Shown here piece after piece: positions 303 through 61,579 of a stretch of 64,000 bases of DNA (positions are counted from its first letter, which is position 1; each line of letters begins with the position of its first letter). The stretch is from a virus (lineage: Duplodnaviria; Heunggongvirae; Uroviricota; Caudoviricetes): positions 16,199 to 80,198 of the IMG/VR virus record IMGVR_UViG_3300028486_000080, one strand, 5' to 3'. Under the pieces are notes generated by a model, which saw only the letters and a program-made list of their open reading frames with translations, did no database searches and was not told the origin of the DNA. The position numbers and the translations under genes were made by a program.

Positions 303-1239
303 GGTAGCCATCATCGGGCCATCCTTCATCGTATCCGTCATCACCTTCATCCTCATCGTCATCGTAATTAGGACCGTCGTCGTCGTCGTCCTCATCGTAG
401 GCGCGTGAAGTAGTGAGAGGATCATTGTGCCAAACAACGCCTTCCAAGGCAGCCCCCGGAACTGCGAGAGGGCTAGACTCTAGATGGTGGATGCCCACAT
501 CCAGGTCTGCCAATTCTCCAATGACCTTGTATCGGAATACGCGCATCTTAGCGCAATTATAGTCACGCGGGACAGCGACGACATGTGCCGGGCTGACTTC
601 CACAACTACTACGCGATCTCCCGCTCCGTTGCCGAAATGCGGCAGGTACTCTTTCGAGCAAACGTGTAGACCGTTGGAACAGGCGTTATCCCTATCCGGG
701 TCCACCTCCCATGGATCGACCGAAGGCTCTTGCCCTGGGTGATTGTCGATTGTGCCTGAGTGACAGTCCAGGTAGTCGCTGCGAACTTTTTTGTAAGCGA
801 CAAAGTTACCTTCCTCGGTTATCGGCACATTGTTGCGCTCAAGGAAGTCGAATAGTGATAGCACAGCTTCACGACGGTGGTTCTGGTAGAGCTTAGCCAT
901 GAAGTTGACCAATGGTCCCGCATCCAGTTGCAGTTCGATGAAGTGCATGATGCGGTCAGTCAACGTGTTGTGGATCGGTTTGCCCTTGTAGAATACGCCG
1001 TCACGAGTGACAGTGATATCTGCATGCTCAGCGAATGCTGAAGCAACGAACTCGACCTTGTTCATCAGTGGATAGATGTCAGCAGCCGTCGCTACCGAAC
1101 GTATTAGGTCCAACACCTGTTCGTATCGCGGATCGCTCTTCTGCCAAGTGTAGCAGGCTCCCGGATGAGGACTGTCGGGGAGACAGTGTACCGAGATAGA
1201 GTCGGGGGATATGCGGTAAGCGTAGTCACGCTGCAACAT
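292..1239 (-). CDS. rIIB: rIIB-like lysis inhibition protein
   Basis: PITEEGNFVAYKKVRSDYLDCHSG, CSNGLHVCS and VVAVPRDYNCAKMRVFRYKV are rIIB motifs; directly follows rIIA; GAGGA RBS before ATG 1239; D/E-rich tail. Confidence 0.9.
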   Translation of the reverse strand: MLQRDYAYRISPDSISVHCLPDSPHPGACYTWQKSDPRYEQVLDLIRSVATAADIYPLMNKVEFVASAFAEHADITVTRDGVFYKGKPIHNTLTDRIMHFIELQLDAGPLVNFMAKLYQNHRREAVLSLFDFLERNNVPITEEGNFVAYKKVRSDYLDCHSGTIDNHPGQEPSVDPWEVDPDRDNACSNGLHVCSKEYLPHFGNGAGDRVVVVEVSPAHVVAVPRDYNCAKMRVFRYKVIGELADLDVGIHHLESSPLAVPGAALEGVVWHNDPLTTSRAYDEDDDDDGPNYDDDEDEGDDGYDEGWPDDGYHGS

Positions 1240-3646
1240 TATCTTCCTCACCGGTTAAGCTTAATCGTTTCTCGATCACGCTTATAACGTGGGCTGCCAT
1301 GGCTGTCAACTCAGGAAATCCTGATAGATCAAGTGGCGGCGCCTTATCCTTGTAGAACGAGAGCATGCCGTAGAAGTAAGCCTTCCCTGTGTCGGTCAAG
1401 AGTGCGTTGACGTGGGAGTCATCGGTGAGCATCCGTTCTAGCATAATGTAACGCTCATCGAACGCCTTAGCGATCCGATTATAGTCGAAGACCTTATCTT
1501 CGCTTTGCTTGAACCCATGACCGTACATGCGGCTGAGGATAACTCCCAACCGAGTCCGATTATTGTTGTCATCATCGCCCCGCCACGACATTGCCGTTGG
1601 TACACCAAATCCTAGAGCGAACAGTGGATCGCTGCGCATCATATCGATGATCATAGGTCCGATCTCGATCATATTGTTGCTCAGGAGCTTTGATAGTTTC
1701 AGGAAGTGGTGTCCTGTGTGTGACAACAAACTAGCGCGGACATTCAACTGAATTTCGTCCTTGCGAATTTGCTGTATCACTTTTTTATCGATAACCCCGA
1801 GGAGATTCTTCCACAAGGTGTTGCCCTTCATCACCTCAGCCTGCCCCGCGGTAAGGCGATAGATTGGTATCGTCTTATCGTAGAACCCAAGCGCCTCAGA
1901 ATTATCGAGCACCGATCTGAAAGTGCTGCGATTGATCCGTGACTTCACTCTCCCTCCCGCAGAGGGTGGGACCATCAAATCATGGGTGGACGTGTGTCTT
2001 ACGACGTAATAGGCTTCTGAGGTATAGCACGGCTCTATCTTTCCTCCCCAGTTGTCTAAAACCCATGGGTATACAGCCGTCTTAGAAAATTTCGCTTTAG
2101 CTTGAGGTTTTGCCCGTACTTTCGCGGATTCTGGCAAGTCGTCTTCAAAGTAAGCTCCGCGAAAGACGCCAGCTTCTTCGATCTTTGCCAGCATTTGTTT
2201 GACATAGCGGCGCGCGCAGCGAATCACCCACACCTGTAGGGCGCTATCTTTTCCTGGCGGGAGCTTCCACTTCTTGGACTCCTCCACCAAGTGCTCGTTA
2301 ATTGCCGGGTTCCACTTCAAATGCGACGGAACTATGTATAGGATGTCAGAAGGCACGATGTTGATAGTTGTCTTCTTAAAAGGCGACAAATCAACATAGG
2401 TCGTCCCTGCGTAGGCGTATAGGCTACCTGCATGAAAGTTAGCCTGAAAACCTAGTGTGCGCTTGCTAAGCTCAAAAGTCCGTGACGGTTTGCCTATGTA
2501 TCTCGGGAGAGCGTCTTGGTTGTCTTTGACGTATTGCTTCCAGTTTTGTTCAATACGATTCTGCCCAAGTTCAGCGACTAGTGTTGTCATCGCGCGAACA
2601 TATATTGGCTGATCCTGCTCATCCTCATCCAAGTAGGTCTTGGCTAGCGCCTCGGCAGCGGTAGGATAAGTGCGGGCATTACCTATTGTGGATTCGATAT
2701 CAGCCTGTAGTTTGTCGAATCCTTCGTTAATAGTATTGATGATTCGTTGCTTGCTCACCTCATCGTATTGGATAGCTTCACGAGACATCGTGACGGAGCA
2801 AGTCCCGATTGGTAGATCGATGAGGATAGTCTTCGCCTCCTCACTCATGCTCCTAATGACGCTACGCGTTTTGGTGTCAACATCGTACATCAGAGAAGCG
2901 TCGAGTGGATAGACTGCCGCTCCTTGGCGTACATAAACGTTCCAGATTCCCTTTTGCGAGGCGTCCCCTAAATAGACGCGATCCGTGAGTTTGATGATGC
3001 CACCAAAGCTCTGGATGTCGATGTCTTCGTACCCTACGCCTTCAAATACGATCCTCTTGTCAAACCAGGAGAAGTGTTGATTGGCTAGCCCTTCGATGAT
3101 CTCACGCCGATGACTGTCCCCAAGGGGAACAGTTACTTCGATGCCTCTAGGCTCTTCCGAGGGCATCGTGTAAGAGTGGTCAATTCTCGGCACACCATCT
3201 TGCGGAACGCAAATTTCATACGCGCGCACTTCCTTACCGTCGAAAGCGCTGAGTATGAAAGCATCGACCAGCGCAAGCGGTGACTTGGAGCCGATGCCAA
3301 ACATACCAGTCTCTTCATTCGAGTCCTGCTTGGTGCTTTCGAAGAGTGTGGAGTAGTGCTCCATAATGAAGTCATGCGACATCCCCACGCCGAAGTCGCG
3401 CACAGCGAAGTTAGGCTCCATGTGTGAAGGCAGCGATACCTTGATAGGCACATCTTCGCATCCAGCCTTAGCGTGGCTGTCAAGCGCGTTAGCGATCAAC
3501 TCACGGACGACTGTCTCAGCCTTTTTGGAGTAGATGCTATCGACAAGATTGCGGAAGGAGCGTCCTGTCGCCTTGATCTTCATCGTCGCGCTTTGACCGA
3601 ACCCCTCGCTCGTGACAACGCGATTTTCCTCGTATACGTCCTTCAT
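1226..3646 (-). CDS. rIIA: rIIA-like protein with N-terminal GHKL ATPase domain
   Basis: LVDSIYSKK..VVRELIANALDSH, VRDFGVGM, GMFGIGSKSP, SREAIQYD; paired with rIIB. Confidence 0.9.
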   Translation of the reverse strand: MKDVYEENRVVTSEGFGQSATMKIKATGRSFRNLVDSIYSKKAETVVRELIANALDSHAKAGCEDVPIKVSLPSHMEPNFAVRDFGVGMSHDFIMEHYSTLFESTKQDSNEETGMFGIGSKSPLALVDAFILSAFDGKEVRAYEICVPQDGVPRIDHSYTMPSEEPRGIEVTVPLGDSHRREIIEGLANQHFSWFDKRIVFEGVGYEDIDIQSFGGIIKLTDRVYLGDASQKGIWNVYVRQGAAVYPLDASLMYDVDTKTRSVIRSMSEEAKTILIDLPIGTCSVTMSREAIQYDEVSKQRIINTINEGFDKLQADIESTIGNARTYPTAAEALAKTYLDEDEQDQPIYVRAMTTLVAELGQNRIEQNWKQYVKDNQDALPRYIGKPSRTFELSKRTLGFQANFHAGSLYAYAGTTYVDLSPFKKTTINIVPSDILYIVPSHLKWNPAINEHLVEESKKWKLPPGKDSALQVWVIRCARRYVKQMLAKIEEAGVFRGAYFEDDLPESAKVRAKPQAKAKFSKTAVYPWVLDNWGGKIEPCYTSEAYYVVRHTSTHDLMVPPSAGGRVKSRINRSTFRSVLDNSEALGFYDKTIPIYRLTAGQAEVMKGNTLWKNLLGVIDKKVIQQIRKDEIQLNVRASLLSHTGHHFLKLSKLLSNNMIEIGPMIIDMMRSDPLFALGFGVPTAMSWRGDDDNNNRTRLGVILSRMYGHGFKQSEDKVFDYNRIAKAFDERYIMLERMLTDDSHVNALLTDTGKAYFYGMLSFYKDKAPPLDLSGFPELTAMAAHVISVIEKRLSLTGEEDNVAA

Positions 3647-3675
3647 AAGTAACCTTAATCTAAGGGCTCAAAAGG

Positions 3676-3698
3676 AAGCCCTACCTTAGGTAGGGCTT
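3676..3698 (-). terminator. intrinsic terminator-like hairpin downstream of the sciP-like gene
   Basis: Perfect 10-bp stem AAGCCCTACC-TTA-GGTAGGGCTT, followed by a short T tract on the minus strand. Confidence 0.55.
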
Positions 3699-3728: not shown

Positions 3729-3995
3729 TCAGGACTGACGATGCTCATGTACCTTAGTCACCTTGAGTCCGTCAAGCCCGAACTTCGCGAGGGACATTTC
3801 CCAATATTTCAGTTCGGCTTCGGTCCAGCGGTAGGTCTTCAGAGCCCACTCACGCGTAATTAGCTTGCCGTGGATAGCAGCGATTACTTCTGCTTTTCTA
3901 CGGGCGGTCCACCGCGAGGTATTCGCTGGGGGTAGGCTATCGACCGTGATCTGACCGGTTGGTCCTAGAGCATACTTCGGGCGATGTGCTGCCAT
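3729..3995 (-). CDS. sciP: SciP / DUF1153 family CtrA-inhibitor homolog
   Basis: YALGPTGQITVDSLPPANTSRWTARRKAEVIAAIHGKLIT...W...GLDGLKVT matches the SciP pattern GP.G....DLPP..T.RW..RRKAEVVAAV.GGL; GGAGG RBS before ATG 3995. Confidence 0.88.
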   Translation of the reverse strand: MAAHRPKYALGPTGQITVDSLPPANTSRWTARRKAEVIAAIHGKLITREWALKTYRWTEAELKYWEMSLAKFGLDGLKVTKVHEHRQS

Positions 3996-4073
3996 GTGTT
4001 TTACCTCCATGGGGTTGCTGGAGGTCTTACTAGCATCGTTAATACTAATCAGCAAGGGAAATTTTCGGTAAGG

Positions 4074-4646
4074 TTAACTTGTCTGTGCAGCGCGTAGCAG
4101 CATAGCCTTAAGAACTTCCGCAGCAGCTAATGTATCCGCGAAGGCGTCATGGGCATCCTCGATCTTCTTACGAAGAAATGTGTAGTATGCACCACTCAAA
4201 CGCACAGGGCGGTTGAGCATAACTTCAGCCCGTTTCATGATGCACATAGTTTGCGTGTTGTCGGGGAAGATCGGGCGCTGACTATAGTCCTCAGGATCAA
4301 TACGCATAGAGGTTTGACGCATCACCTTCTCATCAAAGGCTAGGTTATACGCGGTAATAAGGTCAGCTTCCTCACATAACTCACGAAACTCCGCTAGAAC
4401 TTCCTTGATCGGGCGCCCCTCAGCTTGGCATAGGGCTGGAGTAATACCATGTACCTCTACAGCTTTCTCATGAAACGGGGCACCTCGGGGCACCTTAACC
4501 AGGGTATTCACGGTCTTAATTATCTCGAAGTTATCCCCGAGCATGACCACACCAAGCTGCACCGGCCACGGCTGCACAATCGATAGCGGGTCTTCACCCT
4601 GAACTGGTAGACCGGTGGTTTCAGTATCGAATACGAGAACCTTCAT
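4074..4646 (-). CDS. DEDDh 3'-5' exonuclease, DNA polymerase III epsilon-like
   Basis: VFDTETTG, AYNLAFD, HDAFADT motifs. Confidence 0.9.
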   Translation of the reverse strand: MKVLVFDTETTGLPVQGEDPLSIVQPWPVQLGVVMLGDNFEIIKTVNTLVKVPRGAPFHEKAVEVHGITPALCQAEGRPIKEVLAEFRELCEEADLITAYNLAFDEKVMRQTSMRIDPEDYSQRPIFPDNTQTMCIMKRAEVMLNRPVRLSGAYYTFLRKKIEDAHDAFADTLAAAEVLKAMLLRAAQTS

Positions 4647-4662
4647 AACGAGTAACCTTGAG

Positions 4663-4709
4663 TTAACCTACAATGTTAACCATACTACTACAAAAGCGCT
4701 TGCTGTCAA
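4663..4709 (-). promoter_or_regulatory. sigma70-like promoter TTGACA-N16-TAGTAT with a downstream TTAA-N9-TTAA
   Basis: Read directly: -35 at 4704-4709, -10 at 4682-4687, TTAA at 4663 and 4676. Confidence 0.55.
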
Positions 4710-5596: not shown

Positions 5597-5929
5597 TCAG
5601 GCTTTGGTGAGTTTGTAGAGCCCATGTCCTAAGGTCTCCAAGAAGTGCTTGTTCTTCTCCGCGAAAGCGATAAGGTCTTTCACGGTACCAGGGTCATCAG
5701 TCTTGATGATGGCTACGTCACCCGACGCCATAGTGCGCACTGAGCGATTGAGCTTGATGATGCTCACCGGGCACTTGGCTCCAATCAGGTTGATTTCGAT
5801 CTCCATAGGCACACTGCCCTCCATTGTGTTTAAGTAGTCCTGGCATGCCGCACACTGACAAGGGTATCCGACCCTCCAGGTATCGGTGCCGCAGGGGTTG
5901 CCGGTAATATGACAGCGAGTGTTCAGCAT
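5597..5929 (-). CDS. TusA/SirA-like sulfur carrier domain with Cys-rich N-terminal extension
   Basis: INLIGAKCPVSII...MASGDVAIIKTDDPGTVKDL follows the TusA pattern LD..G..CP.P......GE.L....DDP....D; ATG overlaps the polymerase stop (TGATG). Confidence 0.72.
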   Translation of the reverse strand: MLNTRCHITGNPCGTDTWRVGYPCQCAACQDYLNTMEGSVPMEIEINLIGAKCPVSIIKLNRSVRTMASGDVAIIKTDDPGTVKDLIAFAEKNKHFLETLGHGLYKLTKA

Positions 5930-8151
5930 CAATGAGTCTCCGCCCAATTATCGCCCGCCTTTGCATCAGCCTCAATAGGGAGCTTGATCCCGAGTTGCTT
6001 ACCGGCATCAAGGGCGCTTTGGAGACAGACGTTCCAGATGAGTTGTTCGTGCTCAGCGCGACACCCAAACTGAAGTTCGTCGTGCGAGTAAATCATCAGG
6101 GTAAAGTCGTTGTCATAACCGACCTTCAGCCCATGCTCGCGCTCCAGCACATCCATAATCCGTATGATCCAGAACTTGGACACGATTGCCCCAGCGGATT
6201 GCAGCAGCGTGTTGAGGGCGGCATGGGACTTACGCACAGTCAGACGGCGACCGTCGAGACCTTTGATCCACCCTCGCTTAGCGAGTGCTTGGACATTTTC
6301 AACCAACAAGTTCATGCCCGTGACGCCGCGCATGAACCGCTTCCTAGCTTCTTTTCCGACGACCTTCTGACGGCTCGGCGGCGAGAGTGGTTCAATAATG
6401 AAGCCGAGCTTTTCGTCTCCAGCGCCGTAGATGAGCGCAAACAGGAACGCCTTAGCATCGCGCCGGTTATCGAATCCTAGGATAGCTCGGTTAGCTTCGT
6501 GGATGTCCTTGTTGAGAACAACATCAGCAAGTGCCCCGTCATCGTAGGGCCAAAGATAGTGTGCCCAGCAACGAAGCTCGATACCCTTCAAGTCGGCGCC
6601 AACCATGCGCCATCCCTGCGGCACCCCGAAGAGTGCACGGCAGTCATAACCCCACTTTCCTTCTTCACCCTTAGCTACACGGACCTTGGGCTCCCCCTTC
6701 TCATCCAGGATCGGCTTCCCATCCGCATCAAGCAGCTTCACGAACTGCACAGATGGAACCTGAGAGATATTCGGGTTCATATGCGATGCACGACCAGTTA
6801 CCGTGTTGCACGGGATGATCGTTGGATGCAGAAAGCCATTGGTATCTACCATACCAAGCCAAGCTTTCTTGCCCGTCTTCAACTGACCTAGACGCTTCTG
6901 GAGCAACAGGTACTTAACGAGAGACTTCGCTACCTGCGGATAGTCCTCTTCAAGCTTCAGCAGCGTCTTCTCATCTGTCGCTGGAGCACCAGTGTCAGTG
7001 AACTCTTCTGGCACCCATCCCATTTCCATGAGGCGGTGCTGGATTTGTGGTCGCGAGTTAGGGTTGAACTTGACCTTGGCGATCTTGACGTAGGCTCCAT
7101 CGCCAGTAACTTCGTTGTACTTGGTAATCTGCGCATAGATGCCGTGCGGCGTGATTGCTTTGCGATCACGCTTCGGATGGAACTCCTCACCCCATTGCTC
7201 GCGCGTCTGCCAATCCAGCAGGTTAAACCGCCGCCGGTACACAGGGTGCTTCGGATATAGTCGCTGAAGTTCTGTTAGCTCGTTGTGGCTCGCCTCAGGC
7301 GTGAACACCCACTTCTCAGGCTCGTAACGATCAGGGAACTCGTGCTGAAGCAGGGCGCCAAAGTGCTCGACCAAACCATGGAGTTCGTCATATAACGCTT
7401 CGGCTCCCTCGACATCGAACCAGATTCCGTTGTCTTTAGTCTCCTCCATAAGCTCCATCATGTAGTGCTCAACACGCACTGCATTCAGGACGCCAGGGTT
7501 CATCTTCGGCTTGAGCTTCTTCAGCCATAGCGACTTCAGCAGACGACTATCGTCAATGCCGTAGTCGATCATGTCGGGATTGCACTCAGCCCAAGGGTCC
7601 AGCCCCTTGGCGAGCATCATTGCCTTATAGTCACCCTTCGACTCTTGCAGGCGAACACCCCAAGCTTCGAGCCCGTGTTTGCCGATCATCTGCCCAGTCA
7701 GCTTCTTAGGATGCCCGAACGGCAGGCTCTTGGTCTTCTCAAAGAGAACGAAGTCAGTGTCCTCTTTGATGTTGCCATGGAAGAGGCGGCACAGGACGAT
7801 GGAGTCCCATGTCTCTGTCGCAGTGCGATCAAAGGCTGTGTGATGCTCCAACACTTGATAGTCGAAGCCGATACCGTTGTGGAACACAACAGTCTTCGAG
7901 CGCATTAGCATCGCCACGCCCGCCGCAATCGCCCCTTCACCAAACATGAAGTGACGATTGGGGCGAGCCAGGGTTTCAGCGACGTATGCAAGATCAGCCC
8001 GAGCGACGAATACGAACTCGTTGTCCGTCTCGGCTTCGGCAATCGTCAGCATGTGGATGGTATCAGGCATCCAATTTGGTGGCGAACCAATAGCCGTCGT
8101 CTCGATATCCGCTAGGGATGTCTGAGGGCTGTATGTATTAAGATCAATCAT
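5929..8151 (-). CDS. polA: T7-like family A DNA polymerase with 3'-5' exonuclease domain
   Basis: ADIET, FHNGIGFD, TVTGRASHMNPNISQVP, motif A DLKGIELR, motif B RRDAKAFLFALIYGAG, LQSAGA, motif C SHDELQ. Confidence 0.95.
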   Translation of the reverse strand: MIDLNTYSPQTSLADIETTAIGSPPNWMPDTIHMLTIAEAETDNEFVFVARADLAYVAETLARPNRHFMFGEGAIAAGVAMLMRSKTVVFHNGIGFDYQVLEHHTAFDRTATETWDSIVLCRLFHGNIKEDTDFVLFEKTKSLPFGHPKKLTGQMIGKHGLEAWGVRLQESKGDYKAMMLAKGLDPWAECNPDMIDYGIDDSRLLKSLWLKKLKPKMNPGVLNAVRVEHYMMELMEETKDNGIWFDVEGAEALYDELHGLVEHFGALLQHEFPDRYEPEKWVFTPEASHNELTELQRLYPKHPVYRRRFNLLDWQTREQWGEEFHPKRDRKAITPHGIYAQITKYNEVTGDGAYVKIAKVKFNPNSRPQIQHRLMEMGWVPEEFTDTGAPATDEKTLLKLEEDYPQVAKSLVKYLLLQKRLGQLKTGKKAWLGMVDTNGFLHPTIIPCNTVTGRASHMNPNISQVPSVQFVKLLDADGKPILDEKGEPKVRVAKGEEGKWGYDCRALFGVPQGWRMVGADLKGIELRCWAHYLWPYDDGALADVVLNKDIHEANRAILGFDNRRDAKAFLFALIYGAGDEKLGFIIEPLSPPSRQKVVGKEARKRFMRGVTGMNLLVENVQALAKRGWIKGLDGRRLTVRKSHAALNTLLQSAGAIVSKFWIIRIMDVLEREHGLKVGYDNDFTLMIYSHDELQFGCRAEHEQLIWNVCLQSALDAGKQLGIKLPIEADAKAGDNWAETH

Positions 8152-27260: not shown

Positions 27261-27650
27261 TCACTCCGTGGCAGTTTTCTGAAGGTTGGGGTTGCGCATC
27301 GTGTAGCCCCGCCCCCAAACTGTTTCGATGTAGTGCTGCCCGCCCGTGGCGGTTGCGAGCTTCTTGCGGAGCTTGCAGATGAACACGTCGATGATCTTGA
27401 GTTCCGGTTCATCGATCCCACCGTAGAGGTGGTTGAGGAACATTTCCTTCGTGATCGTCTCGGCGGGCTTGAGTGCCAGAAGCGCGAGCATATCGAATTC
27501 TTTGCCCGTCAGGTGAACAGGTGCGTCATTGACCAGCACCGTCTTAAGGTCAAGATTGACCTTGATTTCACCAATGGTGATGGTGGTTTGCTCAGCATCC
27601 TCAGGGGGAGCCGTCTCCTCAGGAGCCACTTTTTCCTTAGCTTTTGTCAT
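27261..27650 (-). CDS. ctrA: CtrA-like winged-helix DNA-binding domain lacking the receiver domain
   Basis: VHLTGKE...[32 protein letters not shown]...[10 protein letters not shown] is the CtrA C-terminal signature; only about 30 aa low-complexity N-terminus; GGAG RBS. Confidence 0.93.
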
Positions 27651-27661
27651 CACTATCTCCA

Positions 27662-27712
27662 TTAATATGTGTTAACGCCTCCACGGTTAACCGATTAACC
27701 GGGAGGCGTCAA
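27662..27712 (-). promoter_or_regulatory. promoter of the ctrA-like gene (TTGACG -35) overlapped by a 35-bp inverted repeat carrying TTAA half-sites
   Basis: ACGCCTCC(A)CGGTTAA-CCGA-TTAACCGGGAGGCGT at 27675-27709; four TTAA in 27662-27698. Confidence 0.6.
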
Positions 27713-48505: not shown

Positions 48506-48630
48506 TTAATTTTCGATGGCGATTTGTTAACCTTAAAAATTAGGGTTAACGCCAGATTCACAGAAATTAACGACCGTTAACGTTAACGCGCGCTTAACGC
48601 GGCGCTGTCTCAAAATGGGACAGTTGTTAA
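48506..48630. promoter_or_regulatory. cluster of 9 TTAA half-sites including canonical TTAA-CGCGCGC-TTAAC (48583-48598)
   Basis: Counted in sequence. Confidence 0.65.
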
Positions 48631-48685
48631 CCCGAAATTTACCATGATCCAAGTTGGCGATTTTTTCGCTTGGCGGCGATTTTTG

Positions 48686-48718
48686 TTTACCTCTCGTTAA
48701 GACCTTGAGGCGCATAGT
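48686..48718 (+). promoter_or_regulatory. cassette promoter TTTA-N7-TTAA-GACCTTGAGGCG-CATAGT
   Basis: Read directly. Confidence 0.65.
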
Positions 48719-48756
48719 CAGCACATCGAAACGCCAACACCCAGGAGTCGAACCCA

Positions 48757-48947
48757 TGCAAAAGCGCCATTTTGAAGCCGTAGCAAAGGCAATCAAAGCC
48801 TGCAACATCAGCGAAAACGCTCGTTGCAGTGTTGTGCTCGCTCTGGCGAACGAGTTTGCCGAGCACAACGAAAAATTTCAGGAAATCAGATTCATGCTGG
48901 CATGTGGTTGCTCGCATGATGACGTTGCGCTGATGTTGCGCGCCTAA
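48757..48947 (+). CDS. small hypothetical protein
   Basis: AGGAGTCGAA leader; MQKRHFEAVA pattern. Confidence 0.65.
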
Positions 48948-48968
48948 TCGAGAACGAGGAGTCGAGCC

Positions 48969-50225
48969 ATGACAGCGGCAGGTTACATAATCGGCGGCAT
49001 GTTCCTAATCGGCGCTGTGATCCACGTCGATAAGCTGCAAACCAAGCTCGACTCCTCTATGTGCATGACGCGCGCATGCCTTGAGCTTGTCAGCGTCGAA
49101 AAGTCAGTAAGAGAACGCAACGCGGCAAAAGCCGCTCAAATAGAGGTGATGCATGCACTCGAACGCTAAAGAGATCGTGACCATTGTCGAGACAACGAAA
49201 ATCGAGTCCGCAGAAGACTTGGCGGCATACTTTGCCCGCGGCGGAGTCGTGCACAAATGCGCGATTGGCGAGCGCTCGATTGCCCCAGGTGAGGCGCCCG
49301 TGCTCGATGAGGAATTCGATACGGAATGAAAATCTGGCACGTGATAATTGCGGGGGTGCTTTTGTGCGCCCTCGCTGGATTCTCGACTCACAACTGGCGC
49401 CGCAACATCTGCGACGTTGATTGCAGAGTCCAATTCGAGGAGTCGCTTAGGTGATAGTCACCTCTAAGCACGTGCGCCCTAATCCGTACAGGGCGCGCGA
49501 ATTCGTCGGCTTTGATGCGTCGGGCAACGTCTGGCGCATCTATCACAATGAGCGGCGCCGCTCGCATGCCGAGACGTGGCGAGTCGAGAAAATAATGGGC
49601 GGCACGTCGTTTTGTTCACGCAATCTTAGCGAAATCAGCGATAGGCTAGCCAATACCGCATAACCGAGGAGTCGAACATGCTTGACCTAATCGCCAACTG
49701 GCAAGATTCGCCCATGCTGCTAGCCGGGGCAATGCTCTTTTCTTTTTGGGTGACCGCTTCTGTGGTCCGCTAAATAGGAGTCGAACAATGAAGCCTGGAA
49801 CAAGAATCGAAGTCGTCTCGCCGCGTCTGCATTGCGCCGGGCAATTCGGAATCATCGTCGCCGCGTGCTCTAGTCATGCCGACGTGCTGCTTGACGATGG
49901 CGGCACCCTCAACGGGATTCACGTCTCGCACCTCAGGGAAAGCGATTATTTCGCTTGGTAGTAGTTTGTTAAGACGTGCCGGGATATTCTCGGCACGTCA
50001 ACACATGAGGAGTCGAACATGTCTAAGCTAGTTCAAGTTTTTGGCGACTACGGATATGACAGCGAGCAACTATTGCTCGGTGAAACGTCCCTTGAAGATG
50101 CCGAGCGCTTTATCAAGCGCTACACCCGCGGGGGTGACTTCGGAGGCTATAGCGTCATTGAGGCAATATCGTTTGCCGATGATGGCGAGGCAATCGTGCG
50201 CTTCAAAGTCTCGATTGACGACTAA
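48969..50225 (+). CDS. run of seven tiny genes: 48969-49169, 49153-49329, 49326-49454, 49451-49663, 49678-49773, 49788-49961, 50019-50225
   Basis: Coupled ORFs, most preceded by GGAGTCG(A); three have hydrophobic helices. Confidence 0.55.
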
Positions 50226-50282
50226 CAGGTAAGGTGCCCGGTGTAACAGCCGGGCATCATTGTGGCTTGTTTTTTGGTATGG

Positions 50283-50534
50283 TTAATTTCGCTACGTGAT
50301 TCTGTTAACCTTAATGTGAACACCTATCAGCGTTAACCTTAATCGTTAACCTTAACGTGAACACCTATCAGCGTTAACCTTAATTCTTAACCTTAATAGT
50401 CAGCTTTGTTAACCTTAATTCTTAACGTTAATGCGCGATTCATGGTAAATCTGGCGTTAACGTTAATTGTTAACCTTAACGGCTGTTAACCTTAACGATT
50501 ATGGTTAACGTAGTATGGTTAACGAGCCGTTAAC
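50283..50534. repeat. dense TTAAC array: 24 TTAA, 8x TTAACCTTAA, one exact 28-bp direct repeat, one canonical CtrA box at 50519-50534
   Basis: Counted in sequence; non-coding. Confidence 0.9.
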
Positions 50535-50555
50535 CTAAATGAAAATTAGTGTTAG

Positions 50556-50675
50556 GAAAACCTCACGAGCCCAAAGCCAGATCGCGATTCGAAAAGCTCG
50601 CGAGCCCATGGGTGCTCCCGAGTGTGAAAAAGCTCACGAGCCCATGGACAGATTCGATTCTGGAAAAGCCTCAGG
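50556..50675. repeat. iteron-like repeats GAAAA(G/C)CTC(A/G)CGAGCCCA at 35-nt period
   Basis: Copies at 50556, 50591, 50626 and a degenerate copy at 50663. Confidence 0.75.
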
Positions 50676-51164
50676 TGGTCGATTATGCTTGCGTAGATTG
50701 TCGATGGCTGGAATCACTCTCAGGTTCCACGGTACGTGAAGCCCACACCGATCTTTACCTTGCAACGGCTCGATATGGTCAACATGGTGAGCGACACCCG
50801 TCTCTTGTTCCTTGACTCTCGCCTCCAGATACTTGGCGGCAATCTCGTCCACCATGGCGTCGTTCTCAGAGCACCATACAGGAAAAGCGTTAATAAATCG
50901 TGCACGCTTCTTAGCGTTGCGCGCTCGTGATCGCCCGATATTTTTTCGGTAGTAATCTCTGTTGTTGTCCCGGCGTCTCTCTCGATGCGTGAGGGCATAA
51001 AGGCGCCCGCGCGCTAGGTAGCGCTCTCGATTTTTCTTCTGCCACGCCTTGGTGCGTTCATTGCGGCATGGCTTGCATTCCCCGGCGAGTCCGTCACGGT
51101 ATCGCGGGTCTTTGCAGTAGTCTGTTAACTCTTTTTCCTCTGAGCACTTCGAACAGCGTTTCAT
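50634..51164 (-). CDS. HNH endonuclease with N-terminal Zn-finger
   Basis: KRCSKC...ECKPC; HHVDHIEPLQG..CGLHVPWNLRVI...NLRKHN; own promoter TTGACA-N17-TACACT at 51171-51199. Confidence 0.9.
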   Translation of the reverse strand: MKRCSKCSEEKELTDYCKDPRYRDGLAGECKPCRNERTKAWQKKNRERYLARGRLYALTHRERRRDNNRDYYRKNIGRSRARNAKKRARFINAFPVWCSENDAMVDEIAAKYLEARVKEQETGVAHHVDHIEPLQGKDRCGLHVPWNLRVIPAIDNLRKHNRPPEAFPESNLSMGS

Positions 51165-51298
51165 GAACGCAGTGTATCAATATTAACCTTAAATGTCAAC
51201 TGTGATATATTTGTTGTGATAATATTGTCACAGATGCTCGTTGACTTAAAAGTCAATTTAAGATTCGGACAACCTCCCCCTTAGTTAAAATTTCTGGC

Positions 51299-51384
51299 GG
51301 GTCCACATACCCCCCTAGGAAAAAATCCGGCAATGGGTCCACCCGCCCTATCTCTAATTTTGGGGAAGGGTCCACCCGCCCTAT
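51299..51384. repeat. three GGGTCCAC repeats, two extended to GGGTCCACCCGCCCTAT
   Basis: Copies at 51299, 51335, 51368. Confidence 0.7.
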
Positions 51385-51394
51385 TCTCAAATAG

Positions 51395-51628
51395 TTAACG
51401 GCTCCCCTCGATCTTTTCCATGAGTGCCCTCAGCATCGCTTCATAGGGGAAGTTGCCCACCTTTTCCACCCGGCGAAAAGTGCTAAGGCTCATACCCAGC
51501 GCCTCAGCGGCAGCCGGTTGACTCAAATTGAGGCGGGTCCGCCAATCCTTAACATCGATACCGAGGGTCGATGCGAATTGGGGCACCAGATCGCCATAGT
51601 CGCCCGTACGGGTCACATCGTTGGTCAT
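51395..51628 (-). CDS. XRE-family HTH regulator
   Basis: VKDWRTRLNLSQPAAAEALGMSLSTFRRVE. Confidence 0.75.
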   Translation of the reverse strand: MTNDVTRTGDYGDLVPQFASTLGIDVKDWRTRLNLSQPAAAEALGMSLSTFRRVEKVGNFPYEAMLRALMEKIEGSR

Positions 51629-51631
51629 GGA

Positions 51632-51784
51632 GTCAAAACTGTTCAAATTGGACAGGGGGGTAGTCAAATTGACTGTAGTCAATTTGAAGGGGTAGTCAAA
51701 TTGGATACCCCTCAAAACTGTTCAAATTGAACAGTTTTGCGCCTGTTAACGTTAATCTTTAAGCCTAATGTGTTCAAATTGACT
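51632..51784. promoter_or_regulatory. six TCAA(A/T)TTG pseudo-palindromes upstream of the XRE gene, putative operators
   Basis: Includes AAAACTGTTCAA-A-TTGAACAGTTTT at about 51715-51739. Confidence 0.6.
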
Positions 51785-52283
51785 ACCCCCCGACGCTCGA
51801 CGGGCGATTTGTGACCATTTTCGGGGCGTTTGTGTCCACTGAATGGTCACACGACTTCCGAGGGGTGTAGGGCGGCAAAAACCCAGCATTTCTCGGCTCT
51901 TGATGGCTTCTTTACCTTACTATTCTTACTTAATATAACTATATGATTAATGTAACCAGTTTTGGGAAGTCCTTAGCCCATTGCAAACGAATCTTAAGCA
52001 TAAAAGTTAACGTTAACGTTCGTGCTGTTTGCGCCCATCCGTGCTCCAGTGTGCTGCTGTAGCCCGTGATATGCCTTTTGAGGAGTCACAATAGACCTGT
52101 AGTTTCTTTCGACGTAAGCCTTTGATATCGCCCAATGTTTTTGTGCCCATTTTTCGGGGGCAATGGACACACTCCCGACACAAGAGTATTGCAATTAACG
52201 ATAATATCCTGTAGTATCTCAGAGTCGAAAGGCGTGAAACGCCCAACGATCAACGATCAACCCTCAACTCTCAGGACACCACC

Positions 52284-52766
52284 ATGGGTCTCTTAACTCT
52301 CGACGTGCACCTCGAATTGGATACCGAAAGCCCCGAGGCTATGATGCTTCTAGCCATAAAACACCGGCTAGGTCTCTCCGACGTTGACGCGATCAAGTAT
52401 GCCCTTCACCACCACCAATTGAAGCACAATCGCGCCAAGGGTACCCTACCCCGTAAGGCTGATCAGATGCGCAAAGTCCGCGCTATCCAGCAATGGCAAG
52501 CGGTCCATGCCGCCTATGGGAAGCTGGCAACATGCCCTCACATCTTTGCCGTTACGGTATGGGATTACGGTCCCGACAACAAAACCGTCGAAGTCACCGT
52601 GAAATTCCCATGGGTCAACCCTAATGATTGGACCACGTGGCGGGTCGATACTGACAAGGTGCACGATGCCAAAGGCGTGGCCATTTACTTCGCTGCCCAG
52701 TCCCTAGGATTGAACGTCGAAGACAAATATGCAACAGAGCCTATCCGTTGCGTTCAGGTTAATTAA
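52284..52766 (+). CDS. hypothetical protein
   Basis: 160 aa, AGGA RBS. Confidence 0.6.
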   Translation: MGLLTLDVHLELDTESPEAMMLLAIKHRLGLSDVDAIKYALHHHQLKHNRAKGTLPRKADQMRKVRAIQQWQAVHAAYGKLATCPHIFAVTVWDYGPDNKTVEVTVKFPWVNPNDWTTWRVDTDKVHDAKGVAIYFAAQSLGLNVEDKYATEPIRCVQVN

Positions 52767-54113
52767 GGATTTTCCCGCCGCCGCGCGTTGTATTCTTGAA
52801 TGCGTGCGAGCCCGAACAGTCGCCGCATTTCATCCACCGGCAGACCACGGCGCCGCGCCCCACCACGCACGGCTGAATCCTCGATAACAGTCTCTAGCCA
52901 ATCGGTCACCGGCTTGAGGCGTTCCGCTTTGTTGCTCATGCGCAGTAAGCTATGGGCATCCCGTAACAGCGAAATATTAGGCACCGGCAGCGCGGGCAAC
53001 GGCTCCAATTGCTTGACGCGTCCGCGTTTAGGTTTCACCGATTCGGACATTACCGCTTACCCTTGTTCCTCGACATTCATAATTCCAGGTCCAGGTTTGT
53101 GCGTGGCGTGCGTCACCATGGCGTAGTCAGCAGGCGAGAACATGACGACGACTTGCGCGCCCTTTATCGCGTTATCCATAACGTAATGCATCGCGGGCAT
53201 CATGTCCTCGAAAGGACCGACGATGCCCTGCATATTCGGCAGCACCACCACATACTGAGTAACCATTACGCCTCCACTTCACCCTCTTGGCGGCGCTTGA
53301 TCACCGCGGGCGCTAGCGGGTCCAGCGGACTATCGCTAGCCTCGATTGCGCGCTCCCGCAGCGTAGCCTCCAGCCCCTCAGGAGTCTTTGCCTTAGGAAA
53401 CGTGCTCGGCAGTCCAGGCACACACGTTATGCCCCATTTCTTTGCGAGGCTCCCACCGATCTTGCGCATGGCTTCAGCCTTGCCACGCAAGTCGGCAGCC
53501 ACGAGCTTGGTGCCCATGCTTGCCATGTCGTCGGCTTGCTCGTCGTAGAGTCCCGCCTTAGTAGCGATAAGCGATACCGTCATGTCCTGCGCCGCGCGCA
53601 TGACTTCACGTTTTGACATTGAGTGCTCCCTTAATCATTCGTTGGCGCAACAGCTTCACCGGCACGCCCGCGTTCCTTGCAGCATCCCTTATAAACTTCT
53701 CGGACGCCATAGCCTCCAGCCAATCAGCAACATAGTTAGCGTCCGCCACTACCATGTCGCCTTCTGGCGATCCGTCAGTTTCATAAGCCCGCAACCATTC
53801 GGCAGCAAAGCGCAGCGCATCAGGGGGCGGTTGCTTAGGTATGCTCATATTCTGCCTCCATACGGTCCAAGTATGCCTTGTCTGCCGCCTCTTCGGCGCG
53901 AAGCTCTTCATCGGTCGGATACCGAGGAACCCAACCGTCCAGCCACGCGCACGGGCGGTTAGCCGACAGAACACGATTCTGCGGCAGCGGCAGCCTCAAC
54001 AGAAGCTCCGTCGCCACAGTGTGATAGTAGTCACTCCAGGCGCCCATACCAGCCTTGCGCGCCTCTTTAGAGGCTTCAAGATAGGCATCTTCGGGGGTGT
54101 ATTCGGTGCACAT
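52763..54113 (-). CDS. operon of five hypothetical genes: 53835-54113, 53606-53848, 53266-53619, 53057-53266, 52763-53050
   Basis: Coupled ORFs behind the cassette promoter at 54160; 52763 and 53606 look paralogous. Confidence 0.6.
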
Positions 54114-54159
54114 AGGTTCGACTCCTATAATGGCGCGCATTGCGCCGAACTCTCAGGAA

Positions 54160-54190
54160 CCCTAGCACCAAAGTCTTAAGAAACCGTTAA
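54160..54190 (-). promoter_or_regulatory. CtrA-box promoter TTAA-CGGTTTC-TTAA-N7-GTGCTAGGG
   Basis: Read directly. Confidence 0.75.
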
Positions 54191-55398
54191 GGTACCAATA
54201 TAATCGGACCAACGATCTTCAGGCACACACAATTGTCGATCCACACCGGGCGCCCTTCGATCAGCAAATCCCACGCACTCTTGTGAAGCGTTAATGTTAA
54301 CTGTTTCTCTAGATCAGCGACGGTCGTATCCCAGGTCTCTTCAACGTCGAAATTGTGCCGTGAGTATCTGTTAACCCTAATAGGGATTGAACCCTCACCT
54401 ACGGTCATTTTTCCAGTTTCCTCAACAGTCGGGCGCGCGGCGGACCACTTCAGTTTCTTTCATCGATCCTCTCTCCACAGAAAGCGCACCGCCCGCGCAC
54501 AACGATGCACACGTGGTCCGTCAATACATATGACCGATAGAGGGTCATCGGTTGTCAAAATCCTTTTGATACACGAGCTTTTTACAGTGCTCACAATAGA
54601 TTGTCACCGTGCCGTAAGCACCGCCACCATGCCCACACGTCGGGCAACCTTCAGAGCTTGACGCCTCGACTTCTATCATCGTTTCGGTCCAGGGCTTTGC
54701 ACAGAAGACACACAGCGGCGGCTTCACCCACCCGTTTGGATTGTCGCTCAATAGTAGTGCCTCCGAGAATCATCCACACGCACGATCTCACCATCAGCGG
54801 TGTAGTCGATGCCACACTTGGCGCCGCTCAGGCTATTGGTCATGTCCTGCGGCGTCAAATAGCGAAATCCCTTGTAGGCTTCGCGGTCCATCAGCGCCGT
54901 CTCGATCAGCGACGCCACGCCCCGGCGCGCGTCCTCATCGCGATCAGCCGAGTGCAGGATGTAGCTATTCGCCCAATTGCGCAGCTTCTCAAGCTCCACA
55001 GTCTTGCGTGCCTTAGCCATGACGTGCCCTCCGTTGCTCAAGATAGCCGACGATCATCTTGTTGCGCTTAGCCAGAGCCTCGCACATGAAACGCTGATAG
55101 GTGCGCGCGTTCCCCAGCCACCACGGGTCCAGCGGTCCCGTTGCAGCCTCGTTCGCTTTGCGTGCCCAGAGCGCTGCCATGCGCTTGGCGTGAAGACTTG
55201 CTTTTGCTCGCGTCATTCGAGCACCATCCAGCCAATCACGGGGGACACGTTCAGGCGCGCAACAAGCGCCTCGTATTCATCCGCCGTGATATGGTTGCCA
55301 AGCTCACGAGACTTGTTCATGGCTCCCTCAAGCGCAACGCGAATCATGTTGGTCTCGACAAGGCTGAAATTCTGGTAAGGCGCGCGATAGATTTGCAT
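54187..55398 (-). CDS. operon of small hypothetical genes: 55213-55398, 55013-55216, 54748-55020, 54545-54751 (CxxC Zn-binding), 54187-54408
   Basis: Coupled ORFs; the first has the GGAGTCGAAC leader. Confidence 0.55.
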
Positions 55399-55432
55399 GT
55401 TCGACTCCTTTGTGTTCTCTCGACTTCAAGCA

Positions 55433-55463
55433 CCCTAGCACGAATGTACTAACGAACCGTTAA
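55433..55463 (-). promoter_or_regulatory. CtrA-box promoter TTAA-CGGTTCG-TTAG-N7-GTGCTAGGG
   Basis: Read directly. Confidence 0.75.
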
Positions 55464-55827
55464 GGGCGCCCTTGTGTCACTAGCCCGGCATCCTCCAATT
55501 CGCTCAGCATGTCAGAGACACGCACCAGCTTCGTGCGATCCGTGATCTCTCCGTTCGCGACGGCATCACGATACCACGTGATAACCTTAGCCTCGCTAAC
55601 CCAGCGGCGCTCAGGGTAGACGATGAAAAATTGACGATCTCCGCTCATGGCAGATACAGCGTCGGATAGCTGGTAGAGGCGTTGAAGCCCATAACCTGCG
55701 TGGTCTCGATATTCACATCGGCAACGTTCTCGACAGTCCGCACAACCGCACGGATGGCTTCCTTTGGCGTGCCCACGTTGAAGACGATCATCACCGCGAC
55801 TTGATTAGGCTTGAAATCAGCTTCCAT
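55460..55827 (-). CDS. two small hypothetical genes: 55645-55827 and 55460-55648
   Basis: GGAGTCGAG leader; ATGA coupling. Confidence 0.55.
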
Positions 55828-55874
55828 TGCTCGACTCCTATAATGGTGCGCATGCACCGAACTCAAAGATCACC

Positions 55875-55947
55875 AGACACCAATGGGATTCGAACCCATG
55901 TTTGCTCCGCGAAGGGTGCCGTCCTGTTCCCGTTAGACGATAGTGGC
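55875..55947 (-). tRNA. degenerate tRNA-Glu-like element (6-nt anticodon loop, no CCA)
   Basis: GCCACTA-TC-GTCTAACGGGAACAGGAC-G-GCACC-CTTCGC-GGAGC-AAAC-ATGGG-TTCGAAT-CCCAT-TGGTGTC-T; D and T arms follow bacterial tRNA-Glu; one mismatch in each of the acceptor and anticodon stems. Confidence 0.65.
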
Positions 55948-56006
55948 TGGCATCACCGCACGGTACCTTGCGGCGTCCCGAGCCGATCAAGCTCAGGCAC
56001 GAACAA

Positions 56007-56036
56007 CCTAGCACTGAGATATTAAAAAAGCGTTAC
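56007..56036 (-). promoter_or_regulatory. CtrA-box promoter GTAA-CGCTTTT-TTAA-N7-GTGCTAGG upstream of the tRNA-like element
   Basis: Read directly. Confidence 0.65.
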
Positions 56037-56154
56037 CACCCGACAAATATAAGGGATACTATGTTATCACTTGCGCGCGTTAAGGTTAAAGATTCGTATT
56101 CCGCGAATGTCCCATATTAAGGTAAACGAATCCTGTAGCCGAAAAACGAAATAG

Positions 56155-59139: not shown

Positions 59140-59172
59140 GTTTCGACTCCATGTTTCCTCGACTTTGGACAG

Positions 59173-59202
59173 CCTACCACAGAGGTACTAACAACCCGTT
59201 AA
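59173..59202 (-). promoter_or_regulatory. CtrA-box promoter TTAA-CGGGTTG-TTAG-N7-GTGGTAGG
   Basis: Read directly. Confidence 0.65.
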
Positions 59203-60363
59203 CGCGCCCTCAGCCTTGCGAGCATTAACCTTACTTATATACCGCAACCGGGAAATGGCGTCCCGAATGTCAGCGCGGATAAACGACTTCTCACGGTCGG
59301 ATAAATCCCACCGATTGCGATCAGCCATGCCGTCGCGAATAGTCATGCGCAGCAATAGCACTTGCCGATCAACCGTCACGGCGAGCCCCCGGCGTCTTGC
59401 CATTATGCAACACCTCGTCATGCGTCTTGATGTGGCGAAGCTTTTCCACTAGCCGCTCAGCAGCGCCAATAGTCAGTGCGTCGGCGTTGCCAGCTTCCAG
59501 GTCCGCCATGATAATGCGCACCTCACGCGTGGCGTATTCGTAAAGATTTGCTTCGCGTTTATCCGACAGAAGCGCAGCGTCGAATTTCATTCAACAACCT
59601 CCATCGTTATCCGCACCCGGCGCCCTATGTAAGGTCGCACATCCTGATGTAGATGAAAGTCCACATCCCACGACTGCACCCGAAAGAATAACTGACTATC
59701 GGGCACCTCAAGCTCACCAACCATAGCCATGCCACCGTCTTCAGTGTCCATAGCCAGAACGCCTTCAGCCACCACCTTAGGCATCGGGGAACTTCTCTTT
59801 GATCCACGCGACCACGTGCTTGGCGGTCTCAGCGTCAAGCGTCACCATCGTGCGCTTGGAGTGCACCGCTTTATCACCGCGCGATATCTCTTCAACATCA
59901 AACATCAGATACGGGTTGCCGGTATGCGTAGCGAGGCGCAAGATAGCCGAGCCCGTGCCGTAACGCTTCCATGACGGTTTGTGCTCGCGGGTCACATACT
60001 CGATCTCTGAGTAGTGCTCACCCTCCGTATTCCCGTCATCCCGGATGAAGTGGCAGCCGTGATCTTTGAAAATTTCCCTTTTCATGATCATACCAACTGT
60101 TGAAGAGCGTGCGCCGCGCAAGCGCCGCGGATGTAAGACTGCAACGCCGCGTCGCTATCGAACACGAGGGGCATTTCCAGGTCATGCCCCGTCACATGAT
60201 AGAAGGCGCCCGATGAATCGACTTTGACGTGCACGTGGCGATAAGCACCAGTGCCCATGTTCTCGTATGCCTCGACCAGGGAACCGGTAGGCATGCCGCC
60301 ATAGGTAAGGCGCGGAAATTCCGACTTTGCGTCGTCGAAAGGCTCTGAAGGCTCGCGGTACAT
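59188..60363 (-). CDS. operon of five small hypothetical genes: 60088-60363, 59777-60091, 59587-59784, 59369-59590, 59188-59421
   Basis: Coupled ORFs; GGAGTCGAAATG leader at 60363. Confidence 0.55.
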
Positions 60364-60576
60364 TTCGACTCCTTGATGTGGTGGAACGAGTGAGTCTTGA
60401 CCTCACACTGACGGCACGGTCGGGCGCGGTATGATCCTCCCCTTAGGTGCCGTTGCTCTGCCAATATTAAGCTACCGTCCCTTAACCATTGAAATCTATT
60501 GTGACGGGCGCTCTTATTCAGCGGTCGGGAAGCTCCGTCCCTTAGGCCGTTTGGGTCTCGCCCGTCACTTCACACA

Positions 60577-60607
60577 ACCTAGCACACAGAAGTTAACAAA
60601 CCGTTAA
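60577..60607 (-). promoter_or_regulatory. CtrA-box promoter TTAA-CGGTTTG-TTAA-N7-GTGCTAGG
   Basis: Read directly. Confidence 0.75.
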
Positions 60608-60612
60608 CGCGC

Positions 60613-60828
60613 TCAGATTTTGCACATTCTTTGAAGGCGCTCGATAACTGCGGGAGTCCTATACCGGCGCGACGTGCGACGGCGCGATCCCTCGAACCAC
60701 AATTGAAGCGTGCCGTCCCGCATACGGAACAAATTGAACTGAGAATTAGTGCTCGTGACAAAGACAGCCGCAGCGCGATAACCGTCTCCAGGCTTGCCCT
60801 TAGTCGTCAGCACATGCGTCAGTTGCAT
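60613..60828 (-). CDS. small hypothetical protein
   Basis: GGAG RBS before MQLTHVL. Confidence 0.5.
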   Translation of the reverse strand: MQLTHVLTTKGKPGDGYRAAAVFVTSTNSQFNLFRMRDGTLQLWFEGSRRRTSRRYRTPAVIERLQRMCKI

Positions 60829-60830
60829 CG

Positions 60831-61442: not shown

Positions 61443-61472
61443 GTTCGACTCCTTTTGTTCTCGACTACGCAC

Positions 61473-61504
61473 ACCCTAGCACGCATGTCTTAACAAACAG
61501 TTAC
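61473..61504 (-). promoter_or_regulatory. CtrA-box promoter GTAA-CTGTTTG-TTAA-N7-GTGCTAGGG
   Basis: Read directly; back-to-back with the plus-strand TTGACA-N17-TAGTGT promoter at 61515-61543. Confidence 0.7.
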
Positions 61505-61579
61505 TACAGGGGACTTGACAACGGTAAGATTAACAAGTAGTGTCCGAGGCTCACCCCTATTAACGTTAAGGAAACCCTC

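Follow-up and report, generated by a model that had tools for sequence, protein, structure and literature searches.

An 88-aa open reading frame (ORF) in the replication module of a large phage raises the question of whether a virus-encoded member of the SciP (DUF1153) family acts on CtrA-activated transcription and, if so, whether its targets are host genes or the phage's own promoters. We analyzed this ORF within the window, i.e. the whole 64,000-nucleotide stretch of DNA that corresponds to bases 16199-80198 of the 165,361-bp virus record IMGVR_UViG_3300028486_000080, and within the full record, which has direct terminal repeats and is rated complete. The record represents a large phage, uncultured to date, that comes from sewage sludge; two sludge metagenome runs contain the whole stretch and are probably its source. 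The host of the phage is probably an alphaproteobacterium, and its PolA is ~33-36% identical to the polymerases of large phages that infect Brevundimonas, Rhodobacter, Ruegeria, Sphingobium and Caulobacter. The genome encodes two proteins of the DUF1153 family; the one at the locus under study is referred to as copy 1, and the one outside the window as copy 2. The features at the locus are listed below, where L006 denotes a related metagenomic contig that is described in the following section.

292-1251: rIIB, beyond rIIA (PHROG/Pfam search)
1226-3646, minus strand: rIIA, the downstream neighbor of copy 1 (PHROG 612, E 9.6e-84; HATPase_c_3)
3650-3658, plus strand: TAACCTTAA motif just 5' of the rIIA start, past the hairpin (comparison with L006)
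3667-3698, minus strand: hairpin with a 10-bp GC-rich stem at 3676-3698, then CCUUUUGAG (CCTTTTGAG); fold -27.4 kcal/mol, z -2.0
3729-3995, minus strand: SciP-like copy 1 (P0001, DUF1153 family), 88 aa (Pfam PF06627, NCBIfam NF051866, AF2 model, dN/dS)
4004-4008, minus strand: GGAGG ribosome-binding site (RBS) of copy 1, 8 nt before the ATG (sequence reading; kept in L006)
4027-4055, minus strand: promoter-like element without a CtrA box (conservation in L006)
4069-4078, minus strand: GTTAACCTTA motif, 5' of the promoter-like element and overlapping the exonuclease stop codon (one of 53 TTAACCTTA sites)
4074-4646, minus strand: DEDDh (RNase_T family) exonuclease, the upstream neighbor of copy 1 (Pfam PF00929, E 7.7e-17; PHROG 192)

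Gene model and conservation of the locus

The first-pass annotation had placed a SciP homolog with a GGAGG RBS at 3729-3995, flanked by genes for a DEDDh exonuclease and rIIA. The ORF was found there, on the minus strand of the replication module, and both flanking genes were recovered with the E values given above. Its ATG occupies positions 3995-3993, the interval 3729-3995 includes the stop codon, and the GGAGG is read at 4008-4004. An alternative TTG start at 4055, which would yield a protein of 108 aa, was rejected because the ATG is where translation of the orthologs starts and is also the codon that the position of the GGAGG fits. Farther upstream of copy 1 are genes for an HNH protein, a TusA-like protein, PolA (a family-A DNA polymerase) and an SF1 helicase. 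The TusA-like sulfurtransferase domain protein, located between PolA and the HNH gene (5597-5947, minus strand; Pfam E 2e-12), is also kept in L006.

We found two metagenomic proteins, P0003 and P0002, that are 75-77% identical to copy 1, the former occurring on contigs of up to 167.7 kb. The 16.6-kb contig L006, which carries P0003, displays the gene order helicase, PolA, TusA, RNase_T, DUF1153, rIIA and rIIB, i.e. the order observed in the window. Copy 1 and its L006 ortholog share 75% amino-acid identity and 70% DNA identity, and the comparison yielded a dN of 0.21 and a dS of 1.64. The resulting dN/dS ratio of 0.13 indicates purifying selection on copy 1 and, together with the presence of a 75%-identical ortholog in the same gene order, shows that the ORF did not arise by chance. 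In addition, the reading frame is intact in three lineages, and conservation extends to its position and to the RBS, promoter-like element and hairpin that accompany it. Copy 1 is a real gene under purifying selection.

A megablast search against GenBank phages, in which near copies may be masked, found no close DNA relatives of the locus. Among the listed sequencing runs that contain the locus, none is recorded as RNA. In a separate wastewater study, two runs labelled RNA-Seq contained short, near-identical contigs over positions 3771-3913 and 4072-4293, which probably represent DNA.

Family, fold and divergence from cellular SciP

Among Pfam profiles, copy 1 matched only DUF1153 (PF06627) at E values up to 1, with 89.9 bits (E 1.2e-25) over positions 4-87 of the 87-position profile; this score exceeds the gathering threshold of 23.5 bits, and the match covers the whole domain. 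Likewise, its only NCBIfam match was NF051866, 'CtrA inhibitor SciP', with 89.8 bits, which is below the curated cut-off of 100 bits, whereas copy 2 (116 bits) is above it. A best HMM match outside DUF1153, named in the first-pass annotation as the outcome that would speak against its reading, was not seen; DUF1153/SciP was both the best and the only HMM family.

The AF2 model of copy 1 (mean pLDDT 71.8) comprises an N-terminal hairpin followed by three helices. The top Foldseek matches of this model were 2JRT (TM 0.70) and 2OA4 (TM 0.60), all others having E values above 5, and the same two entries were the best PDB sequence matches (E 3e-12 and 7.5e-13, respectively). Both proteins, 2JRT from Rhodobacter sphaeroides and 2OA4 (SiR5), share the family and fold of copy 1 at ~38-39% identity; however, they are structural-genomics entries without an assigned function. 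Copy 1 is predicted to have the DUF1153 fold, a helix-turn-helix, with the invariant core of the family kept.

At the residue level, every invariant family column of a 150-sequence alignment is retained in copy 1 (L21, P22, R28, W29, R33, K34, A35, A40, L45, E61 and W65). The RW-x2-RRKAE core is intact (R28, W29, R32, R33, K34, A35 and E36), and the longer core pattern on which the first-pass annotation had relied is present as GPTG..LPPANT.RW.ARRKAEVIAA.HG. We take it that the substitutions R35A and R40A of SciP abolish CtrA binding; the aligned residues of copy 1, R28 and R33, are kept. In Caulobacter, sciP(T24I) and sciP(T65A) suppress SciP over-activity, and T65A behaves as a loss-of-function allele (PMC4083442; PMC4241560). 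T17 and T58 of copy 1, both Thr, would correspond to T24 and T65 of SciP according to a numbering that was mapped via the 94-aa Brevundimonas ortholog P0050.

We also compared copy 1 and its two metagenomic relatives with 118 mainly bacterial sequences at positions where conservation among the latter reaches 85% or more. All three members of the clade carry non-conservative changes at D20, V30, E60, Q83 and Y85, and conservative changes at V38, V41, F62, R78 and R81. Because these near-invariant positions are changed in 3/3 clade members, part of the SciP function may be lost or altered. The C-terminal tail reads KVTKVHEHR in copy 1, compared with the almost invariant RTTRIQxYR in bacterial SciP.

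In a maximum-likelihood tree, copy 1 and the two relatives grouped together (support 100/99), their stem being 1.44 substitutions per site long; the bacterial SciPs, which are nearly invariant, had very short branches in the same tree. A DUF1153 match was present in 124 of 301 sampled alphaproteobacterial genomes, none of the matches being more than 49% identical to copy 1. A search of 1.84 billion cluster representatives returned 2,003 matches with an E value of 1e-3 or lower; the best 150 of these 2,003 were all at 52% identity or less. Copy 1 thus appears to belong to a small, isolated lineage that is known so far only on phage-like contigs. Two further observations concern the wider family. 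The best distant match of copy 1, P0153 (163 aa), contains two DUF1153 stretches and looks like a tandem duplication, and the metagenomic proteins P0005-P0029 (~92 aa) form a DUF1153 subfamily (100/100 in the tree) that shares LPPANT.RWVARRKAEVIAAVHG with copy 1 and differs from it in the C-terminal tail.

Caulobacter crescentus SciP is of the same family and size as copy 1, with a full-length model alignment, and the core and the T24/T65 Thr residues are common to both. However, it is a cellular protein, whereas copy 1 is phage-encoded and at most ~50% identical to any cellular homologue found. Host sciP is activated by CtrA in G1 (10.1101/739516), in contrast to copy 1, whose promoter lacks a CtrA box. 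Given the score below the NF051866 cut-off, the long branch, the identity ceiling of ~50% and the absence of a CtrA box upstream, copy 1 is, as far as its sequence tells, a diverged paralogue and not a plain SciP orthologue. With respect to the cellular protein, Caulobacter SciP has a short half-life through the Lon protease (10.1101/739516), and its mode of action is disputed between CtrA contact and direct DNA binding (PMC4083442).

CtrA-related sequences in this and other phages

The region upstream of copy 1 contains a sigma70-type -35 in place of a CtrA box. Its promoter-like element consists of the -35 TTGCTGA (4055-4049), a 14-nt spacer with TTAAC and the -10 GCTAGTAA (4034-4027). The counterpart in L006 is TTGACAG-N14-GCTAGACC, so that TTG...TTAA...GCTAG is common to both phages. 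We take this element to fit the alphaproteobacterial housekeeping promoter consensus TTGACGS/GCTANAWC; an E. coli-type promoter scan made no call at 4027-4055. No TTAA-N7-TTAA was found near copy 1, all 12 boxes of the genome being ~45 kb or more distant. The L006 equivalent of the GTTAACCTTA motif at 4069-4078 is GTTAACCA, and in both phages a GTTAACC motif lies 10-20 nt 5' of the -35.

On the 3' side, the first-pass annotation had called a terminator. The hairpin itself stood up, with its 10-bp GC-rich stem, but it is followed by only four U and did not pass a strict terminator scan. It may be an intrinsic terminator, weak at best, or a 3' stabilizer. In L006, another GC-rich hairpin occupies the same position 3' of the ortholog, and a T-rich stretch follows the hairpin in both phages. 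Because the position is kept while the hairpin sequences differ between the two, a conserved structural role of the hairpin is suggested. The sequence TTAGATTAAGGTTA, directly after the hairpin and in front of rIIA, is identical in the window phage and L006. Copy 1 is its own unit, with a promoter-like element, an RBS and a hairpin, within the replication/rII module and without a CtrA box.

Elsewhere in the module, GTTAACC motifs occur twice at 4662-4682, with a distance of 13 nt, just 5' of the exonuclease gene; one of the pair is TTAACCAT, and a TTGACA-16-TAGTAT promoter-like site is located beside them at 4709-4682.

The wider genome contains a second SciP gene, a CtrA-type DNA-binding protein and many CtrA-related sites, as follows.

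27261-27662, minus strand: receiver-less CtrA-type DNA-binding protein (P0152), 133 aa (Trans_reg_C, 71.7 bits)
48583-63064, unstranded: CtrA boxes inside the window, at 48583, 50519, 54176, 60593, 62978 and 63050 (pattern count)
4069, 11246, 11680, 11733, 28340/28352 and 50305-50486: examples of TTAACCTTAA-type sites in the window
G000:C1:86766-87065 (equal to L001:1498-1797), minus strand, outside the window: SciP copy 2 (P0032), 100 aa (whole-record search)

Copy 2 scored 120 bits on Pfam DUF1153 and 116 bits on NF051866. It is 58-65% identical to the SciP proteins of Hyphomicrobiales and Caulobacteraceae, among which it nests in the tree. Across many members of the Hyphomicrobiales, Caulobacteraceae and Sphingomonadales, its identity to SciP is 58-63%, which is too even for a host to be named; sludge Hyphomicrobiales are candidates. 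A perfect TTAAC-N6-TTAAC box is located ~50 nt 5' of its ATG, followed by 7 nt and TGCTAG, and on the 3' side a 62-codon ORF is followed by a Tad/vWA pilin-like gene. Judged by sequence alone, copy 2 is a canonical SciP. In contrast, neither the box nor the TGCTAG, the Tad/vWA neighbor or a score above the cut-off is found at copy 1. The two copies, of the same family and in the same genome, are 39% identical. Copy 1 may have arisen by duplication within the phage lineage: the copies are not sisters in the tree, but their grouping in one clade is not rejected by an AU test (p 0.47). Two DUF1153 copies are rare in cells; of the 124 genomes that had a match, 4 carried two.

P0152 is a CtrA-type winged helix in which the IETVWGRGY segment is kept, and no Response_reg match was found anywhere in the 165-kb genome. 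We regard this protein as a candidate partner of copy 1. A single complex prediction of P0152 residues 24-133 with P0001 scored 0.01 against a mark of 0.32, and carries no weight for or against an interaction.

A genome-wide count of the CtrA box TTAA-N7-TTAA gave 12 occurrences compared with 1.3 expected, and all 12 lie within a 26-kb stretch (64.8-91.1 kb) of the 165-kb genome; six lie outside the window, past its end, and include the box that precedes copy 2. A second class of site is spread over the whole genome: TTAACCTTA occurs at 53 sites (0.5 expected) and TTAACCTTAA at 40 sites (0.1 expected), i.e. the latter is ~400-fold over-represented. Crude ORF calls leave ~11% of the genome non-coding, and 42 of the 53 TTAACCTTA sites fall in this intergenic fraction. 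The in vivo SciP ChIP-seq consensus from Caulobacter is (G/A)TTAACCAT(A/G), i.e. RTTAACCATR (PMC4083442). The phage motifs TTAACCTTAA and GTTAACCTTA are one base off this consensus, and exact RTTAACCATR occurs 10 times (0.5 expected). In the window phage as well as in L006, such motifs are found in front of three genes, namely those for the exonuclease, the SciP-like protein and rIIA. The motif consists of two CtrA half-sites, so that CtrA, the phage CtrA domain, a SciP-like protein or a complex of them could bind it.

We then compared these features with those of other phages. No PHROGs family matched copy 1 or copy 2, and a tblastn search of either copy against 50,697 GenBank phage records matched only the isolated Erythrobacter phage XM05 (PV416404.1, 152 kb). 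The match (79914-80250) runs from gp97, a short SciP-like gene annotated as hypothetical, into gp98. Seven full CtrA boxes occur in XM05 at 78.2-97.8 kb, around the SciP-like gene (79.9-80.1 kb), compared with 0 for the control pattern. Pattern-limited IMG/VR scans yielded ~10 further DUF1153 loci, several at contig ends, three of which are short forms without the N-terminal hairpin. The complete 88.5-kb L099/L004 virus (IMGVR_UViG_3300043640_000137) contains 4 CtrA boxes in two tight pairs (control pattern 0), and an 87%-complete 116-kb contig contains no CtrA box.

The proteins of XM05 (gp97), L099 and L005 are phage-borne and DUF1153-related, as is copy 1, to which they are 34-41% identical. 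However, they comprise only 61-79 aa and lack its N-terminal hairpin/LPP part, and unlike the window phage, their genomes have no CtrA-type DNA-binding domain. The L099/L004 and L005 ORFs begin near the RWTARRKAE motif. The possibility that SciP and a CtrA domain form a general phage module was rejected: five viral records with CtrA-like domains had no DUF1153 match, and five with DUF1153 had no Trans_reg_C match.

According to the available text of Mascolo et al. (2022), host CtrA acts on alphaproteobacterial phage promoters in what they term 'lytic deferment' (PMC9437464). The phages described in that text have clustered, mostly intergenic CtrA boxes, as does the window phage (PMC9437464). 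SciP sites were scanned there, and the same text reports no phage-encoded SciP, whereas the window phage has two SciP-family genes and a CtrA domain (PMC9437464). More generally, the literature searched, in the portions available, deals with host CtrA on phage promoters and with SciP-site scans, and makes no mention of a phage-encoded SciP.

Possible roles of copy 1

We propose that copy 1 modulates CtrA-dependent transcription in a form adapted to the phage; it would be made with the replication/rII genes from a CtrA-independent promoter and act on CtrA-type activators at TTAAC-containing sites. We give this reading an even chance of being correct. Host RNA polymerase would make copy 1 along with the replication genes, independently of CtrA, and the protein would act on CtrA-type activators bound at TTAAC-containing sites, namely host CtrA, the phage receiver-less CtrA domain, or both. 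By doing so, it would damp or retune CtrA-dependent promoters, including the 12 CtrA-box promoters and many TTAACCTTAA sites, and the host S-phase CtrA regulon (flagella, pili and chemotaxis) is a further possible target. Copy 2, behind its CtrA box, would represent the feedback arm known from the host, and copy 1 would represent a CtrA-independent input. In this proposal, we infer which partner copy 1 acts on, whether its effect is positive or negative, and when it occurs.

We favor this modulator reading because of several groups of results: the full-length DUF1153 match, with NF051866 as the only NCBIfam match and DUF1153 folds as the structural matches; the retention of the invariant columns and of Thr at the T24 and T65 equivalents; the clustered CtrA boxes of XM05 and the L099 virus; the conserved synteny, the dN/dS of 0.13 and the conserved promoter-like element and GTTAACC motif; and the genome context, i.e. 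the receiver-less CtrA domain, the 12 boxes, copy 2 behind a box and the enrichment of TTAACCTTAA and RTTAACCATR. We counted against it the score of 89.8 versus the cut-off of 100, the stem of 1.44, the replaced near-invariant positions, the dispute over how SciP itself acts and the absence of a CtrA box upstream, unlike host sciP. The first-pass annotation had gone further in proposing that copy 1 shuts off CtrA-activated host genes or the phage's own box-driven cassettes. Such a shut-off is plausible, since the RW-x2-RRKAE core and the T24/T65-equivalent residues are kept, since CtrA boxes and SciP-consensus-like sites abound in the phage genome, and since clusters of CtrA boxes are also present in two other phages that carry SciP-like genes.

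A somewhat unlikely alternative is that copy 1 represses TTAACCTTAA-type sites as a sequence-specific DNA-binding protein, by means of its own helix-turn-helix and without contacting CtrA. DUF1153 is a helix-turn-helix fold, and the TTAACCTTAA-type sites lie on or beside many promoters, copy 1's own included; the motif is one base off the SciP consensus, ~400-fold over-represented, mostly intergenic, and in two phages kept 5' of three genes (for the exonuclease, the SciP-like protein and rIIA). At positions 48-54, in the second helix of its helix-turn-helix, copy 1 differs from bacterial SciP, which could fit a shifted specificity. However, the motif is made of CtrA half-sites, so that host CtrA or the receiver-less CtrA domain could bind it just as plausibly. 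Although SciP occupies RTTAACCATR sites in vivo, its binding to DNA without CtrA is contested (PMC4083442).

We consider it unlikely that copy 1 is instead the dedicated partner of the phage receiver-less CtrA domain, the two forming a phosphorylation-independent activator/anti-activator pair that times the CtrA-box cassettes. The TTAACCTTAA sites would then be read as composite CtrA-half-site/SciP sites, and copy 2 would handle host CtrA. If true, this would represent a complete, orthogonal CtrA-SciP switch rebuilt on a virus.

It is quite unlikely that copy 1 acts as an antagonist or decoy of SciP, in other words, that it keeps the CtrA-binding core, has lost the RNA polymerase-blocking part or the Lon degron, and shields CtrA-dependent phage promoters from host SciP or copy 2. 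The retention of RW-x2-RRKAE, while other near-invariant positions and the tail (RTTRIQxYR to KVTKVHEHR) have changed, would fit such a protein, and so would the presence of a canonical copy 2 in the same genome, two copies being rare in cells (4/124). However, the basic pattern of the C-terminal tail is retained (K, K, R), the argument is purely inferential, and to our knowledge no SciP decoy has been described. We know of no degron for which the sequence of copy 1 could be checked.

We regard as improbable a role unrelated to CtrA for a small helix-turn-helix protein, for example as a transposase-type or replication accessory factor. Copy 1 does lie among replication genes, JGI names its ortholog P0003 'transposase-like protein', and precomputed HTH_28 matches exist for some family members. 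However, Pfam gave only DUF1153 at E up to 1, with no match of copy 1 to the IS3-type transposase OrfA helix-turn-helix (HTH_28 / HTH_Tnp_1), and NCBIfam gave only SciP. Moreover, no transposase gene adjoins copy 1, its neighbors being the exonuclease gene and rIIA, and the CtrA-related genome context argues for a CtrA-linked role. Finally, the reading that copy 1 is a host sciP gene carried along neutrally or in decay, which could account for the long branch and the score below the NF051866 cut-off, is extremely improbable in view of the dN/dS of 0.13 at a dS of 1.6, the frame kept intact in three lineages, and the conserved position, RBS, promoter-like element and hairpin.

Copy 1 is a genuine gene maintained by selection, a variant within a known regulator family that is specific to phages, and is located in an unusually complete phage CtrA toolkit. 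SciP and CtrA constitute the core switch for alphaproteobacterial cell-cycle genes, including those for flagella and pili, which are receptors for many phages. Work so far has addressed the action of host CtrA on phage promoters; a phage with SciP-family genes and a CtrA domain would steer the switch itself. As a natural variant in which the core is kept and invariant positions are changed, copy 1 is also a useful probe of whether SciP works via CtrA contact or DNA recognition.
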